Of a stretch of DNA of 49,037 bases, positions 1,553 to 19,491 are shown in pieces. Numbering within the stretch: the stretch's first letter is position 1; each line of letters opens with the position of its first letter. A program made the position numbers and the translations under genes. Under the pieces are notes generated by a model, which was not told the DNA's origin, searched no databases, and saw nothing but the letters and a program-made list of their open reading frames with translations. Source of the DNA: a virus (Duplodnaviria; Heunggongvirae; Uroviricota; Caudoviricetes); IMG/VR virus record IMGVR_UViG_2778261529_000004. One strand, 5' to 3'.

Positions 1553-1741
1553 TCACGAGGGCCGAAGTTTCTCGCAATTAAAATTTATCAGCTTTACTTT
1601 CTGCTCTCTGGAAACGCCTGCTTCTTTTTTCCCCGAGAGCATTTTTTCGCATTCTGATTTAGTTAGTTTAGATTTTGAATATCTTGTCCAGTTAGTAGGA
1701 GTGCCACCTTCCTTTTCAATAGTGGCGGTAATTTTATACAT
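1553..1741 (-). CDS. Hypothetical small protein (ydaC position)
   Basis: Track ORF 1553..1813; preferred start at the internal ATG preceded by GGAGG a few nt after the Lar stop. Start is uncertain. Confidence 0.45.
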   Translation of the reverse strand: MYKITATIEKEGGTPTNWTRYSKSKLTKSECEKMLSGKKEAGVSREQKVKLINFNCEKLRPS

Positions 1742-7103: not shown

Positions 7104-7511
7104 AATTATCTCCATTTTTACAAATGAACTTTGTTGATGCGGTGCCTGGTGCCTCCAGGTGACGTTAACCAGTTAACAATTAACGCCGGATAATCCACCC
7201 ATAACACTGATGCTTTTAACTGTGCCGCGTGCGCTTAGCCGCATTCACCGCATCACAAAATTCACTTTAAAAAGGGGCGGCAGGGCAGCCACGGAGTAGA
7301 ACTGATGCCGCCAAAGACTACACACAGCAATGTCGTTATTTACAACCGGAGGCGCACTCCCACCATTTAAATTTAACAGACAAGACCGACTCTTTATGGA
7401 TATCGGAAATGCGCCTTCGTGTTGCGCCCGGTTTTATTTCACCACCTCCGGGCTTTGGTGGTTTCTGCTATACCCCTACAGCGAGAATATTGAATTAATC
7501 CAAATAATGGA

Positions 7512-13380: not shown

Positions 13381-13935
13381 TCAATTATCTAAAATTGTGC
13401 TAAATCTTTTTATTACCATTAAGAACGTTATAACAGTGATAAAAAAGGATGTATAGGCTAAAAAGCTAACAATATATGCAGGTGCGCGAAAATACCATTT
13501 CATTAAATCCACTGCATTGTCAGGCAGGAAATATATTATCACTGAAAATATAACCAATACTATTGAAGTTAATATTGCATAAGCGACGTTGTGGCATAAC
13601 TGCTCATATATGGTTTTGTTAGTGTTTAATGATATCAATTTGTCTCGGGATTTGTTTCCTTCAATTATGTCTGATATCTTAGTGATGGTTTTTTGTTTTT
13701 GTTCATAAATCATTATTACTGCACTCATTAATAGTGCTGTTGTAATAGCCCCGAAGTTAACAAAGACGGAAGCAATTGCCGGTTTCATTATTCCGTATGT
13801 CCAGCACAGAACGAAAGAAAGAGATAACGGAACAATAAAATGTACGATAATGTCGCTCATCAACATTGTTCCACGCTGATCTGACATTGTTTTGTAGTGT
13901 TTTATTATTACACCCAGTACATTTATTTTATTCAT
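13381..13935 (-). CDS. Small integral membrane protein with four predicted TM helices (candidate effector), 184 aa
   Basis: Four long hydrophobic segments (IIVHFIVPLSLSFVLCWTYGI, FGAITTALLMSAVIMIY, VAYAILTSIVLVIFSVIIYFL, YIVSFLAYTSFFITVITFLMVI); ATG overlaps the upstream stop (ATGA); markedly AT-rich. Confidence 0.7.
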   Translation of the reverse strand: MNKINVLGVIIKHYKTMSDQRGTMLMSDIIVHFIVPLSLSFVLCWTYGIMKPAIASVFVNFGAITTALLMSAVIMIYEQKQKTITKISDIIEGNKSRDKLISLNTNKTIYEQLCHNVAYAILTSIVLVIFSVIIYFLPDNAVDLMKWYFRAPAYIVSFLAYTSFFITVITFLMVIKRFSTILDN

Positions 13936-14864
13936 ATAATCACCCCTTTGTTTCCGCTATGCAGTTCTAACAATATATCATTAGAAAGGTTTTTTATCGT
14001 GTCATGAAGTGCTGTTAGATCAGGTATGCCTGTTAATGGGTCGATTTTTAGATCATTATCATCTAACTCTGCGGAAATTCCTTTTTTTAGTATGGTATCA
14101 TAATTGAAAACGACAGTCCGACTGCCGAGTTGTAAGCTTACTTTTATTGCATCACATTTATCTTCAATAATCTCAATGATGTTTCCTATATTCTTGTTTC
14201 TTAAATCTCTGAAACTTCCGAACATGCCATCGTTTGCTTTTATTATTAAGTCTGTCTTGATGTTTGTTTTGTTTTGACCAAAGGAATCAGCAATGTCTTT
14301 TGGTGCTTTATATCCTTGAGCCTTAATTTGTTTTAATTCGGAATTGAGAATATATTGAGGGATTTTCTTATGATGTAATGGATTGATTCTTGCTTCGAGT
14401 TGAAATTTGTTTTTTAGATATTCAGTGATAGAATCAGAAAGGACACCTCGAGCAGAAATATTATCGCAAGAGTGGAATGCAATAATTCCTTCTTCAAGGG
14501 CGTCTGGTAGGTATATTAAAATATAACGTTCTTTGAGTGTTACATCATAAGCAGTTGTCCTATAGTGGATTTTTTTGAGTTTTACATCTTTTATTTCACT
14601 GCTTTCTCCATATTTCCCAACTTTTATATAACCATATATAATTTTTTTTGAGTTATCAAAGTGAAGTTTAGCGTGTTGTTCCAGAGATATTTTAGTTTTG
14701 GATACGCCAAACTCGATGGGGGTGTTTTTATATAGAGTAAAATAATCAACAAAAAGTTCATATGCCGTTTTTTTATTACTTAAACCCAATTCATTAAGTT
14801 TTTTGCTGGCTCGACTGCCTTTATGGGTCAAGACGCGGAATGAATAGAAATTAACGCTGTGCAT
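13932..14864 (-). CDS. Hypothetical soluble protein (candidate sensor), 310 aa
   Basis: Lys/Ile/Asn-rich AT-rich ORF, first gene of a two-gene minus-strand operon inside a plus-strand gene block; RBS AAGGA upstream of ATG. Confidence 0.7.
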   Translation of the reverse strand: MHSVNFYSFRVLTHKGSRASKKLNELGLSNKKTAYELFVDYFTLYKNTPIEFGVSKTKISLEQHAKLHFDNSKKIIYGYIKVGKYGESSEIKDVKLKKIHYRTTAYDVTLKERYILIYLPDALEEGIIAFHSCDNISARGVLSDSITEYLKNKFQLEARINPLHHKKIPQYILNSELKQIKAQGYKAPKDIADSFGQNKTNIKTDLIIKANDGMFGSFRDLRNKNIGNIIEIIEDKCDAIKVSLQLGSRTVVFNYDTILKKGISAELDDNDLKIDPLTGIPDLTALHDTIKNLSNDILLELHSGNKGVII

Positions 14865-14915: not shown

Positions 14916-15267
14916 TGCATAAAGGAAAAGCTACCGCAGGGCGAACTCACCCACCGATAGCTCTTAACTGGTTGTTTGTAAAAGATAATACATAAATTGG
15001 GGGCTGTGTAAAGAGGTAAGCATCGTCAGGGCAAGGGAGATGTGTTAGGCGATATTGGTAAAATTTTCGTTGAGGATAAAAACGGTTTGCGGGAAAAGGA
15101 GAGTTAAGTAGAATTGCTGCGGGTGCTTGAGGCTATCTGCCTCGGGCATGAACACCAACGGCAGATAGATAAAAGCCCCACCCGACTATAAATCGAAGTG
15201 AGGCCCCTATATGCTCGTCACATATAGATTGCCTCTTACTGACCGAAAGGTCAAGGAGAAGCAGGCT

Positions 15268-15423
15268 ATGAAGCAGCAAAAGGCGATGTTAATCGCCCTG
15301 ATCGTCATCTGTTTAACCGTCATAGTGACGGCACTGGTAACGAGGAAAGACCTCTGCGAGGTACGAATCCGAACCGGGCAGACGGAGGTCGCTGTCTTCA
15401 CAGCTTACGAACCTGAGGAGTAA
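15268..15423 (+). CDS. Hok/Gef-family type I toxin (51 aa)
   Basis: MKQQKAMLIALIVICLTVIVTALVTRKDLCEVRIRTGQTEVAVFTAYEPEE resembles Hok-family toxins (single TM, RK.LCE.R motif, AAF.AYE C-terminus); the in-frame track ORF extends upstream to 15211. Confidence 0.7.
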   Translation: MKQQKAMLIALIVICLTVIVTALVTRKDLCEVRIRTGQTEVAVFTAYEPEE

Positions 15424-16476: not shown

Positions 16477-16766
16477 TGGTGGATTTACGTAAAGCGGCGC
16501 GGGGCCAGATGTGCCAGGTCAGAATCCCTGGCTACTGCAATCACAATCCCGAAACTTCTGTGCTGGCGCATTACAGGTTGGCGGGAACGTGCGGAACGGC
16601 GATAAAGCCACACGATATGCAGGCAGCGATTGCCTGTAGCTCGTGCCACGATTTAATCGACGGGCGGGTAAAAACAAGCGATTACACCAAAGAAGAATTA
16701 CGCCTGATGCATGCAGAAGGTGTTTTTCGCACGCAAGAAATCTGGAGAAAGGAAGGTTATTTATGA
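16476..16766 (+). CDS. YbcO-like nin-region protein with Cys/His cluster, 96 aa
   Basis: MVDLRKAARGQMCQVRIPGYCNHNPETSVLAHYRLAGTCG...CSSCHDLIDGR resembles the remembered DLP12 YbcO. Confidence 0.55.
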   Translation: MVDLRKAARGQMCQVRIPGYCNHNPETSVLAHYRLAGTCGTAIKPHDMQAAIACSSCHDLIDGRVKTSDYTKEELRLMHAEGVFRTQEIWRKEGYL

Positions 16767-17305
16767 TTTACCCAACAAATACAGGCAAAAGCGGGGAACA
16801 CCTTCGTCTCACCACGCTGGAAAGTGTCTGGATTCAGGGAAAACTGCGCATGTGGGGGCGCTGGTCGTATATTGGCGGCGGTAAGACGGGGAATATGTTC
16901 AACCAGTTGTTGGCCTCTAAAAAGCTGACAAAAACGGCAATTAACGAGGCGCTCCGGAGGATGAAAAAAGCAGGTCTGAACAAGTCTGAACTTGAGGCTT
17001 TTTTGCGGGATATGATTAACGGTAAGCAAAAGAGCTGGCTGGCGCATTGTACTGATGCAGAGGCGTTATGTATTGATCGGGTCATAAGTGAGGTGCTGGC
17101 AGAGCATCCAGGATTGATTAGCGTCCTTCGTCAACGGTATGAGGGGCGGGGGATGACCAAACGCAAAATGGCTGAATTGCTAAATGATGCACACCCAGAG
17201 TGGTGTTTTAGCACATGCGAAAAGCGAATTGCTAATTGGTTGGCCGTTGCTGAGTATGCGCTATACATTCCTATGCGAGAATCATTCGCTCAAAAAACGG
17301 CTTGA
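16763..17305 (+). CDS. Late-gene antiterminator Q-like protein (about 180 aa)
   Basis: ATG overlaps the upstream stop (ATGA) with AAGGAAGG upstream; RMWGRWSYIGGG motif resembles Q-family antiterminators; sits just upstream of terminator and lysis genes. Confidence 0.55.
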   Translation: MIYPTNTGKSGEHLRLTTLESVWIQGKLRMWGRWSYIGGGKTGNMFNQLLASKKLTKTAINEALRRMKKAGLNKSELEAFLRDMINGKQKSWLAHCTDAEALCIDRVISEVLAEHPGLISVLRQRYEGRGMTKRKMAELLNDAHPEWCFSTCEKRIANWLAVAEYALYIPMRESFAQKTA

Positions 17306-17389
17306 TTTTTTACGCATAAACCGCTTCAATTTTGCTAAGCTTCGCAAAGCTGTATCGCGAGGTGAACCAAGCGCATGAACTTTGATACA

Positions 17390-17412
17390 ACCCGCCATTG
17401 AGCGGGTTTTTT
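17390..17412 (+). terminator. Intrinsic terminator downstream of Q (tR'-like)
   Basis: A-CCCGC-CATTGA-GCGGG-T hairpin followed by TTTTTT, about 85 nt after the Q-like stop. Confidence 0.55.
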
Positions 17413-17534
17413 ATGTCCGAAAAACGGCAGAGAACATAAAACGTGCTGGTGGTTGCGAATACTGGTCTTTCGGCTTGTATTTTTGTAAATCGATATATAC
17501 TTATCTTGTGACCAGTAATGTCAGGGCAATTGAT

Positions 17535-18278
17535 ATGAATGAAGCCTGTTCTGTTGTTTTTGTTCATTCCCCGTTTGTTGTGCTCTTTGAAGGAAAAGAG
17601 CTCTCTCTTGAAAGTGGTAGTGCACTTCTTGTCAGGGGGGGAGCTGGATCGTTATTGCCCTTTTCGGAATGTTTTCGGCGAATAAGTCTCAGTGAATCGA
17701 CAATTAGCCGTTACCTGTTGTGTGGAGACGAAAAACAGGATGTAGTTTTAGTCCGGCAAATACCACGATATCTTTGCGTGAGTTTTCCGAAGGCAGAATT
17801 GATGGGCATCCTGATTGATTATCTTTGTGAGGAAAAGATTCATACGGACAATTTAGCGGAAATGCTTTCCTTTTCGTGTCTGGCGTTTTTCTCATCAGAG
17901 AAGATGTTTTCGTCGTTTCTGACCGCGTGTATTAGCAATATTAGTGACAGGCTTAGTGCATTGTTTCGTACGGACATTGCAGCAAACTGGACTCTGAGAG
18001 ATGTGTCTTCGCGGTTATGTATCAGTGAAAGTTTGTTAAAAAAAAGACTGAAAGAAGAAGGCACCTGTTTCAGTGAGTTGTTGCTTACAGAGAGAATGAG
18101 AATGGCAGCAATGCTGTTGAATCAATCTCGTTGCGCCATCAACAGAATCGCTGCTCAGTGCGGCTATAATTTTACATCTTATTTTATCAGCGTATTCAGG
18201 AGTTATTTTGGTGTTACACCGGCAGGTTACAGGATGGCTGCATTCAATGAGATGAGTTTAAGTGTTACTCAAGAATAA
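17535..18278 (+). CDS. AraC/XylS-family transcriptional regulator (moron), about 247 aa
   Basis: C-terminal AraC-type HTH (WTLRDVSSRLCISESLLKKRLKEEG ... INRIAAQCGYNFTSYFISVFRSYFGVTPAGYR); start chosen at MNEACSV; relatively AT-rich. Confidence 0.75.
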   Translation: MNEACSVVFVHSPFVVLFEGKELSLESGSALLVRGGAGSLLPFSECFRRISLSESTISRYLLCGDEKQDVVLVRQIPRYLCVSFPKAELMGILIDYLCEEKIHTDNLAEMLSFSCLAFFSSEKMFSSFLTACISNISDRLSALFRTDIAANWTLRDVSSRLCISESLLKKRLKEEGTCFSELLLTERMRMAAMLLNQSRCAINRIAAQCGYNFTSYFISVFRSYFGVTPAGYRMAAFNEMSLSVTQE

Positions 18279-18412
18279 TTGAATTTTGCACTCATTGAAA
18301 ACAGGCTCGCTGCGGCGGGCCTTTTTCATATCCGCGCCGCGCCCGGCGCACATCACATCAGATAACACCACACAAAAGGCATCTGCGGGTGCCTTTGACA
18401 GGGTGTTTTTAC

Positions 18413-18434
18413 GGGCCGCTGGAGGCCCTTTTTT
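18413..18434 (+). terminator. Hairpin plus T-run just upstream of the holin RBS
   Basis: GGGCC-GCTGGA-GGCCC followed by TTTTTT; a second hairpin (AAAGGCA...TGCCTTT) lies just upstream. Confidence 0.45.
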
Positions 18435-18453
18435 ATTTGTGGGAGGAAAAAGC

Positions 18454-18846
18454 ATGTCTGAACCCTTATCCGGTTCCGGTACGGCTGTGGCGCTCGGCGG
18501 GGCGACGGTATTCGGGCTGTTTACCGGAACGGATTTCGGGATTGTGTTTGGTGCGTTCGCCGGGGCGTTATTTGTGGCAACGATGCCGCAGGCGCTTTCA
18601 GCCTGGCGTGTGGCGGCGCATTTTCTGGTGTCGTTCATTATCGGCGTGCTGGGCGCAGAGGTTCTGGCATCCTGGCTGGTAAAGCATACAGGGTTTGACG
18701 GTGCGCCTGTCGACGCACTGTGTGCAGTGCTGGTGTCAGTGGTGTCGGTGAAGATTCTCTCGTTCATCCACCAGCAGGATATTGCATCACTGGTGTCCGG
18801 CCTGTTCTCCCGTCTGCGGGGTGGAGGAGGCGGCAATGTTAAGTAA
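18454..18846 (+). CDS. Putative holin (three hydrophobic segments), 130 aa
   Basis: RBS GGGAGG then 7 nt then ATG; hydrophobic segments and a charged Gly-rich C-terminus; directly upstream of the endolysin. Confidence 0.55.
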   Translation: MSEPLSGSGTAVALGGATVFGLFTGTDFGIVFGAFAGALFVATMPQALSAWRVAAHFLVSFIIGVLGAEVLASWLVKHTGFDGAPVDALCAVLVSVVSVKILSFIHQQDIASLVSGLFSRLRGGGGGNVK

Positions 18847-19111
18847 CCTTCCCGGATTGCTGAATGTAGCGTTATGCACGGTTATCGTGCTGACGCTCTT
18901 TTTTTATCGTCGCCGTGATTCCAGACATAAACCGCTGATGTCATGGCTGGCGTGGCTGCTGATGCTGCTGTATGCCTTTGCGCCCCTCAGCTATCTGTGT
19001 GGTCGCCCGTTAGCAACGGGCTGGCTGGAAGTGTTTTTTAACCTGCTGTTCTGCGTGCTGGTGATACGCGCACGCGGGAACGTCACAAAAATCTTTCCAT
19101 TGTTGAGGTGA
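18836..19111 (+). CDS. Second lysis-associated membrane protein (holin/antiholin-like), 91 aa
   Basis: Overlaps the holin stop; two to three hydrophobic segments; lies between holin and endolysin. Confidence 0.4.
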   Translation: MLSNLPGLLNVALCTVIVLTLFFYRRRDSRHKPLMSWLAWLLMLLYAFAPLSYLCGRPLATGWLEVFFNLLFCVLVIRARGNVTKIFPLLR

Positions 19112-19113
19112 AT

Positions 19114-19491
19114 ATGTCGGGTAAATTCAGATTCAGCCGTCGCAGTGAAAAAAATCTGGAGGGCGTTAAACCACAGCTGGTTGCTGTCGTTCGCCGTGCG
19201 CTGGAGCTGACGGAGGTTGATTTCGGTATTACGGAAGGGCTGCGCACGAAAGAACGCCAGAAACAGCTGGTCGCGGAAGGGAAAAGCCAGACCATGAACA
19301 GCCGCCACCTGACCGGTGATGCGGTGGATGTTGTTGCCTGGGTTGGCAGCCAGGTGTCATGGGACTGGCCTCTGTACGAGAAAATCGCGCAGGCATTTAA
19401 GAAGGCTGCCGCAGAGCTGGGAACTGCCATCGAATGGGGCGGGGACTGGAAAACACTGAAAGACGGGCCTCACTTTCAGTTGAAACTCTGA
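19114..19491 (+). CDS. Endolysin, peptidase M15-like (about 125 aa)
   Basis: Small enzyme-like ORF in the lysis position with His/Asp-containing motifs (SRHLTGDAVDV ... GGDW) resembling M15 peptidase endolysins; RBS GAGGTG upstream. Confidence 0.6.
   Translation: MSGKFRFSRRSEKNLEGVKPQLVAVVRRALELTEVDFGITEGLRTKERQKQLVAEGKSQTMNSRHLTGDAVDVVAWVGSQVSWDWPLYEKIAQAFKKAAAELGTAIEWGGDWKTLKDGPHFQLKL

Follow-up and report, generated by a model that had tools for sequence, protein, structure and literature searches.

A putative moron-type AraC/XylS regulator between the late antiterminator and holin genes of a Rac-type Escherichia coli prophage

The interval between the late antiterminator gene and the holin gene was analyzed in a 49,037-nucleotide stretch of viral DNA (IMG/VR record IMGVR_UViG_2778261529_000004), hereafter the window, which is identified from its sequence as a Rac-type lambdoid prophage of Escherichia coli. 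The interval (17306-18453) is the exact gap from the stop codon of the Q-like gene (16763-17305) to the ATG of the holin gene (18454), and its sole real gene encodes an AraC/XylS-family regulator. The gene is optional cargo, most likely dispensable for phage growth, in a variable slot between the tR'-type terminator and the holin. With moderate confidence, it is read here as a moron that is insulated by terminators, has a weak promoter of its own, would also be reached by Q-dependent read-through, and would act in trans on host promoters. The regulator represents a new, uncharacterized subfamily of the YdeO/GadW/AppY/PatE/PsrA clade.

Identity and Family of the Regulator

The open reading frame (ORF) is free of internal stops, the window copy is intact, and its product is identical to WP_001405091.1, as annotated in strain A17. 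The ATG at 17535 is the start assigned by the Prokaryotic Genome Annotation Pipeline to the A17 copy, which is 100% identical. A TTG start at 17382, which gives a mechanical ORF of 298 amino acids (aa), was rejected in favor of this ATG because the extension crosses a terminator and A17 is annotated from the ATG. Two Pfam models matched residues 158-233 above their cut-offs, namely HTH_18 (50.9 bits, cut-off 33.6) and HTH_AraC (50.0 bits, cut-off 26.6), and the C-terminal domain of about 100 aa carries the two helix-turn-helix motifs of AraC/XylS proteins. Hence, the AraC/XylS regulator named in a first-pass annotation of this DNA is present, as an intact protein of 247 aa. Within the interval, the Rfam search gave no family at the gathering score and only chance-level matches (E ≥ 0.1), the tRNA search found none, and PADLOC gave no defense-system match for the regulator. 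No paper in the literature search mentions the accession numbers of the regulator. The gene is uncharacterized, and the roles given below are proposed.

The relatives of the regulator were taken from the K-12 and O157 Sakai records, aligned with MAFFT, and placed in a neighbor-joining tree. The clade in question comprises small (about 240-250 aa) enterobacterial AraC regulators of the acid-resistance circuit. The regulator shows full-length homology to them and has both the M-x-x-x-CSV start and the SESLLKK and CGY..SYFI signature helices. In the tree, it forms a branch of its own inside the YdeO/GadW/AppY/PatE/PsrA clade, and the members of this branch are 76-100% identical to one another. 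The identity to the regulator was 37% for PatE-like ECs_0287, 36% for PsrA, 35% for GadW and for YdeO, 28% for AppY, 26% for GadX and for EnvY, and 22% for YbcM; the range to clade members was about 35-41% (AppY 28%). The kinship with prophage-encoded AraC-like regulators that had been suggested in the first pass was borne out by this comparison, with PsrA at 36% (same slot, prophage Sp4) and PatE-like ECs_0287 at 37-39%. The best full-length NCBIfam model was that of YdeO, with 148 bits over residues 2-230. The regulator is not a YdeO orthologue because this score lies below the equivalog cut-off of 348 bits, and the GadX model gave 98 bits against a cut-off of 500. With a best identity of 37-39% and the equivalog cut-offs missed, no orthology to a named, characterized clade member was found. 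PHROGs places the protein in phrog_1450, of unknown function.

The DNA-binding domain was 40-54% identical to those of clade members, and the N-terminal domain was 20-32% identical. The recognition helices SESLLKKRLKE and TSYFISVFRSYF are near the clade consensus. Moreover, the structure of the GadX DNA-binding domain (PDB code 3MKL) was matched with an E value of 1.7e-22. The AlphaFold model of the DNA-binding domain, with a predicted local distance difference test (pLDDT) score of 80-95, superposed on 3MKL with a template modeling (TM) score of 0.91 and a root mean square deviation (rmsd) of 0.9 Å.

Optional Cargo in a Fixed Slot

The regulator gene is encoded by the late strand, with Q/pR'/tR' upstream and the holin gene downstream, which is the position of the toxin genes in Shiga toxin (Stx) phages. 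The gene before the interval passes the Pfam Phage_antitermQ model (PF06530) marginally (27.1 bits, cut-off 26), and its match to PHROG 753 ("anti-termination protein Q-like") has an E value of 1e-79; by these two matches, it is a Q antiterminator. The placement claimed in the first pass, after a Q-like gene and a tR'-like terminator and before the holin, agrees with the gene order, with the DUF1133 and PHROG 753 matches, and with a 7-bp stem followed by a T-run.

In a survey of 5426 complete E. coli genomes, the coding sequence of the regulator was found in 65 genomes (1.2%), always on the chromosome, and the Q gene with its downstream leader and terminator was found in at least 1261. Among close relatives, therefore, the gene is present or absent at a fixed position between modules. 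Behind the same or a similar DUF1133 Q gene, the slot contains tRNA-Thr/Gly genes in FFFEB2 and APEC O1, a gene for a 189-aa hypothetical protein in G12, and tRNA-Ile/Arg genes with TerB and a sialate esterase in 2013C-3277. The same AraC gene (83-99% aa identity) was found after four Q types: the DUF1133 Q of the window, A17, C41, and A19; a 273-aa PF03589 (Antiterm) Q in CEA224S, STEC307, and the P0004 locus; a 250-aa PF03589 (Antiterm) Q in the P0002 locus; and a 121-aa Q-family protein in O139:H1 strain W13-16. Furthermore, the cassette combines with at least two endolysin types, and reverse-strand genes intervene between Q and the cassette in strains A19 and W13-16. The base composition of the gene also differs from that of the flanking phage genes, with a GC content of 0.40-0.46 across the gene versus 0.47-0.54 upstream and 0.55-0.585 downstream (summarized, about 0.41 versus 0.50-0.58).

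The boundaries of the cassette were placed by local BLAST. Loci of other Q types are homologous from 17386-17389 onward, and same-Q loci that lack the AraC gene are homologous as far as 17410, which makes the tR' hairpin the shared 5' junction. The 3' junction lies at 18304-18329, and this segment is duplicated on either side of tRNA inserts in C41 and W13-16. The AraC cassette of STEC307 is separated from the holin module by an inserted methyltransferase gene. The terminator hairpins serve as recombination junctions of cargo cassettes (loci L002, L003, L016, L018, L021, and L022), and an identical tR' hairpin stands behind four unrelated Q families.

None of the sequenced phages carries the subfamily at the DNA level, and tblastn against them gave paralogues only, at no more than 41% identity. 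Among the GTDB species representatives, no member of the subfamily was found; the best matches were paralogues with 36-38% identity in Escherichia, followed by Citrobacter and Salmonella. The subfamily is, on these comparisons, strain-level accessory DNA. About three-quarters of the carrier genomes listed came from cattle, pigs (with many enterotoxigenic E. coli (ETEC) and O139:H1 among them), sheep meat, or farm environments.

Terminators, Leader, and Promoter Elements

Nine terminator-like sites were counted in the region, against 2.8 ± 1.8 in shuffled sequences. The hairpin AACCCGCCAYYGAGCGGGTTTTTT of the first terminator recurs about 50 nt past the canonical pR' and pause elements in lambda-type-Q loci, and it is identified as tR' because of this location. 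Behind the gene, a strong intrinsic terminator starts 25 nt past the AraC stop codon; it has a folding energy of -20 kcal/mol and a z score of -4.2, and none of 200 shuffles was equally stable. The gene therefore has a downstream terminator of its own. The first pass had missed this site and had reported a second hairpin with a T-run just before the holin. The latter exists and is weak (z score -0.9), and it is part of the holin module, in a stretch (18409-18900) that is 94% identical in the Stx2k phage. The sequence 18316-18900 also shares 87-89% identity with phage SerU-LTIIb. As a separate observation on this phage (L004 1882-4181), the holin-upstream region of the window together with the holin is present twice, at 87-89% identity. 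In SerU-LTIIb, an LT-IIb phage, tRNA genes occupy the Q-to-holin slot, and the enterotoxin genes follow the endolysin, which is a different cargo position.

The candidate late promoter pR' was placed by conservation. Seven DUF1133-type loci, with Q genes diverged by as much as about 20%, show strong conservation over the roughly 100 nt equivalent to the leader. The TTG at 17302-17304, the whole of TTCAAT, and T-A-n-G-C-T (17336-17341) are invariant. In lambda-type-Q loci, the Q gene is followed by a -35 element, a -10 element (TAAATT or TAAGAT), 6 nt, and AACGAT/GAAGAT-GGG, and pR' of lambda is arranged alike, with TAAATT, 6 nt, and the sigma-dependent pause element AACGAT. The tandem arrangement of -10 and -10-like elements in the DUF1133 loci mirrors pR' of lambda and of the lambda-type-Q AraC loci, which points to a promoter here. 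The predicted pR'-tR' leader is 65-78 nt long and ends at tR'.

In Stx phages, pR' is active constitutively and terminated in lysogens, and the leader acts as the small RNA (sRNA) StxS (PMC7547250). The leader region of the window (17302-17412) is highly conserved in DUF1133-type prophages (at least 1261 of the 5426 genomes), contains the near-palindrome AAGCTTCGCAAAGCT, and has no Rfam family. It could be a constitutively made regulatory sRNA like StxS, possibly working alongside the regulator.

Between tR' and the gene, an AT-rich region includes a -10-like hexamer, and TATACTTA is conserved across all alleles of the AraC gene. Upstream of the paralogues P0012, PatE-like, ev099, Lambda_2G7a, PsrA, the Stx2k-phage gene, and GadW, a hexamer that agrees with TATAAT at five or six of six positions (T1, A2, and T6 kept) is found with an equal or almost equal spacing to the ATG. 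The -10-like element and the strong terminator right behind the gene together give the classic promoter-gene-terminator layout of a moron. The Q-dependent expression expected in the first pass is probably only half of the story, given these two elements.

Comparison With Prophage Regulators and Stx Cargo

The closest precedent is PsrA. PsrA and PsrB are prophage-encoded secretion regulators of enterohemorrhagic E. coli (EHEC) O157:H7, and psrA (z1789) is ecs1087 in the Sakai prophage Sp4 (PMC13502914). In Sp4 (L015 26715-29668), psrA lies downstream of the antiterminator gene ECs_1084 and directly upstream of the ileZ-argN-argO tRNA genes; it was also sought in Sakai Sp6, where no AraC gene was found. 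PsrA and the window regulator belong to the same AraC/XylS clade, can be aligned over their full length including the N-terminal CSV motif, and are encoded in the same interval of lambdoid prophages. A terminator and a -10-like element precede psrA as well, and the tR' hairpin with about 70 nt after it is 76% homologous in Sp4 and is also conserved in the Stx2k phage. The two proteins differ in that their identity is 36% (47% in the DNA-binding domain and 28% in the N-terminal domain) and that they occupy separate branches of the tree. Moreover, the carriers of the window gene are mostly livestock or ETEC isolates, whereas those of psrA are EHEC positive for the enterocyte effacement locus (LEE).

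PatE (z0321, OI-8/CP-933H) is taken here to be ECs_0287 of Sakai Sp1, an assignment made from the island and not by a search. ECs_0287 is of the same clade, has 247 aa with 37-39% identity over 232 residues, and has TATACT at the identical offset from the ATG. The PatE-type genes (ECs_0287, ev099, and PhiR70_1) differ in position, being located at the tail-fiber/att end beside an insertion sequence remnant and not in the Q-to-lysis slot. YdeO, GadW, and AppY share the clade and the architecture, and all three feed the gadE/acid resistance 2 (AR2) circuit. In contrast to the window gene, ydeO and gadW are chromosomal, and appY is at the right end of DLP12 (tail-fiber/att end).

The slot was also compared with that of Stx cargo, to which the first pass had likened it. 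The window gene shares its slot and its strand with Stx cargo, having pR'-tR' upstream and the holin downstream. The equivalence is supported by phage phiSTEC1575-Stx2k (L012 2485-9619), in which the lysis cassette (holin-holin-M15) is 94% identical to that of the window and the Q-to-lysis interval holds a PsrA-like AraC paralogue, which stands after Q and before the tRNA genes and stx2k. In the same phage, a 58-bp homologue of the terminator region at 18304-18361 of the window sits just upstream of stx2kA. Elsewhere, the slot holds tRNA genes, a methyltransferase gene, nanS-p/TerB, or nmpC (DLP12). Another paralogue stands directly before the holin in Lambda_2G7a-type phages, and a lambda-type Q precedes the P0012 paralogue (42% identical). 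Unlike Stx, the window product is a transcription factor and not a toxin; it therefore acts inside the cell, and release by lysis is not required. A further difference is that the AraC gene appears to have its own promoter and terminator. With PsrA in Sp4 and the paralogue of the Stx2k phage in the same Q-to-lysis interval, the arrangement of an AraC regulator in this slot is already known; the subfamily is new.

The best full-length Foldseek matches were Rns, CsvR, and ToxT (E about 1e-11), which have in common with it an N-terminal domain rich in beta structure, followed by a helical linker and a domain with two helix-turn-helix motifs. They differ from the regulator in a TM score of 0.40, an rmsd of 17-18 Å, and about 20% sequence identity, with no evidence for a fatty-acid pocket; the TM score is low because the N-terminal half of the model has low confidence.

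Proposed Mode of Action and Alternatives

In the favored reading, pR' would fire constitutively in the lysogen and transcription would halt at tR', as in lambda and Stx phages. The AraC gene would be transcribed from its own weak promoter (TATACT), probably in a condition-dependent manner and under silencing by H-NS. This transcript would end at the strong terminator behind the gene, and the holin would therefore stay silent. The protein would bind AT-rich host promoters via its two helix-turn-helix motifs and activate or de-silence them. On induction, Q-modified RNA polymerase would pass all three terminators, and the regulator would be expressed at a high level with the late operon. We infer the own promoter and the read-through from the elements described above. 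The action in trans on host genes, which the first pass had put forward, is suggested by relatives that are 35-41% identical. By the same relatives, the targets would most plausibly be acid-resistance genes of the gadE/hdeA type. PsrA, PsrB, and PatE act on gadE/hdeA (PMC10877973), the functions of PatE and PsrB being as cited in reviews, and AppY acts likewise (PMC10057817). PsrA activates gadE/yhiF and represses type III secretion (PMC10877973). For the family, the precedent is thus gadE/hdeA together with the AR2 circuit, from which repression of the LEE follows in EHEC (PMC10877973; AppY, PMC10057817).

Several observations weigh against this reading. The scan of 16700-18900 for sigma-70 consensus sites called none, against 2.6 expected, so that promoters were placed from conservation only, and that of the AraC gene from its conserved -10-like hexamer. 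With 35-41% identity (20-32% in the N-terminal domain) to the characterized relatives, the targets of the regulator could differ from theirs. The N-terminal half of the structural model, built from an eight-sequence alignment, has a pLDDT of 35-58 and is unreliable; a ligand or pocket therefore cannot be read from it, nor from the matches to Rns and ToxT. The gene is rare, at 1.2% of genomes, and a ratio of nonsynonymous to synonymous substitution rates (dN/dS) of about 0.3 is relaxed for a regulator. Decayed copies also occur. The C41 copy (L003 4230-4971) is frameshifted near codons 24-35 and annotated as 158 aa, the cluster truncated to 158 aa has 61 member sequences, and the C7/C3 copies (hits H7 and H8) have a split annotation and a match that is shorter by 2 bp.

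The empty promoter scan is what would be expected if the regulator served the lytic program only. The gene would then have no promoter of its own and be made by Q read-through alone, and the host would be reprogrammed late in infection or in an induced subpopulation, not in the stable lysogen. In most loci, tR' is followed first by this gene, which occurs behind four Q types, and two further paralogous lineages (PsrA/Stx2k-phage and P0012/Lambda_2G7a) also lie between Q and holin, as this explanation would have it. We nevertheless consider it unlikely. The -10-like TATACT keeps a fixed offset from the ATG, even where the rest of the upstream DNA of a paralogue cannot be aligned, and also in the chromosomal gadW. 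The strong terminator right behind the AraC gene makes sense only if transcripts begin inside the cassette, and Q is parted from the cassette by reverse-strand genes in A19 and W13-16. Moreover, uninduced cells express PsrA, which occupies the same slot, and the protein is active in them (PMC13502914, PMC10877973).

A related proposal gives the placement behind tR' a purpose. YdeO-like regulators of at least three paralogous lineages stand directly behind tR', and the one in the window combines with four unrelated Q families. The position may have been selected for coupling to Q, and the regulator would act late, as an effector by which host transcription is rewired once cells are induced. Stress and acid-resistance genes would be turned on or genes de-silenced, which would sustain phage production or benefit sibling lysogens, and the phage would possess a "late host-takeover transcription factor" instead of a lysogenic-conversion gene. 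This proposal is regarded as quite improbable.

The decayed copies, together with the AT richness, the rarity (65 of 5426 genomes), and the relaxed constraint (dN/dS up to 0.42), could also mean that the gene is a silent passenger, namely a horizontally acquired ORF that is silenced by H-NS, has no present role, and is decaying. However, dN/dS among five alleles (dS up to 0.28) was 0.14-0.42, so that each of the 10 pairs lies well below 1, which indicates purifying selection on the gene. Among the genome copies listed, approximately 90% carry the annotation of one full-length ORF, members of the subfamily stay full length down to 76% identity, and the DNA-binding helices are conserved. For the window copy, the reading as a truncated or inactive pseudogene, which the first pass had named as the outcome that would overturn its proposal, was rejected on its intact ORF and on a dN/dS below 1. 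A passenger role for the gene is improbable to a similar degree as the preceding proposal.

The least probable alternative is a regulator of phage promoters (lysis timing, late genes, or immunity) and not of host genes, for which the location beside the lysis genes inside the late operon and the existence of a PHROGs phage family (phrog_1450) could be cited, because the gene is absent from most prophages with the same Q, leader, and terminator (65 against at least 1261 genomes) and from SerU-LTIIb despite the same holin cassette, is found in free combination with four types of Q and no fewer than two of endolysin, is foreign in composition to its flanks, and belongs to a clade in which every characterized member acts on host regulons (PMC10877973, PMC10057817).

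The comparison shows the Q-to-holin interval to be a general docking site for AraC-type regulators and not for toxins alone, with cassettes exchanged at conserved terminator hairpins. PsrA, PsrB, PatE, and AppY are established phage plug-ins to the acid-resistance and virulence circuitry of the host, and the window gene adds a fourth, uncharacterized subfamily. This subfamily is found mainly in E. coli of cattle and pigs (ETEC, O139) and in Stx-producing E. coli of food animals, where acid resistance governs stomach passage and transmission. Control of the glutamate-dependent acid resistance (GAD) system or of colonization genes, if the regulator exerts it, would make this protein a simple determinant of gut fitness that can be transferred. 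Such a hypothesis can be tested directly, and it does not open a new kind of biology.

Neighboring Genes and the Host Prophage

The features of the window are summarized in Table 1. The Q-like gene is the last of a typical nin region, after the DUF1367 (NinB-like) and YbcO genes. Against the PDB sequences, the DUF1133 protein gave only a faint match, to the N-terminal part of the Q21 structure 6P18 (E value 0.27), and its single-sequence AlphaFold model (pLDDT 43) gave no structural confirmation of a Q fold. By its RalA, DicF, and sok RNAs, the element can be recognized as a Rac/Qin-like lambdoid prophage. In strain A17, the identical region adjoins ttcA, with intR/xisR.

TABLE 1 Coordinates of the genes, RNAs, and transcription signals in the window.
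Feature	Position	Strand	Description
RalA antitoxin sRNA	1557-1735	+	Above Rfam gathering threshold
DicF sRNA	7275-7326	-	Above Rfam gathering threshold
Two AT-rich ORFs	13381-14864	-	184 aa and 310 aa, 4-nt overlap
sok antisense RNA	15121-15270	+	Above Rfam gathering threshold; hok-type ORF at 15211-15423
Q-like late antiterminator, DUF1133 family	16763-17305	+	Pfam DUF1133, 357 bits
Candidate late promoter pR'	17302-17341	+	-35 TTGATT (17302-17307), 17-bp spacer, -10 TTCAAT (17325-17330)
Second -10-like element TAAGCT	17336-17341	+	5 nt downstream of TTCAAT
tR'-type intrinsic terminator	17389-17412	+	7-bp GC-rich stem AACCCGC/GCGGGTT (17389-17408), then T-run
AT-rich region upstream of AraC gene	17413-17534	+	-10-like TATACT at 17496-17501, 33 nt before ATG
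AraC/XylS-family regulator	17535-18278	+	247 aa, ATG start, TAA stop
Strong intrinsic terminator	18303-18327	+	8-bp stem (6 GC pairs) and T-run
Weak terminator-like hairpin	18413-18434	+	5 GC pairs and T6; z score -0.9; just 5' of holin
Holin	18454-18846	+	Pfam Phage_holin_8/Phage_holin_3_7 set; PHROG holin family
Second holin	18836-19111	+	Pfam Phage_holin_8/Phage_holin_3_7 set; PHROG holin family
M15 endolysin	19108-19491	+	Pfam Peptidase_M15_4; PHROG endolysin family

Between the replication/nin genes and hok/sok, the window carries the pair of AT-rich ORFs. Neither Pfam nor PADLOC gave a match for the pair, and the larger ORF (310 aa) belongs to phrog_15676, of unknown function. At this position, related Rac-type prophages carry defense or defense-like genes, including those for a KwaB-like protein, the S8 peptidase IteS, DUF6414, an ATPase, and KilA-N. 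The two ORFs may be an uncharacterized defense pair.

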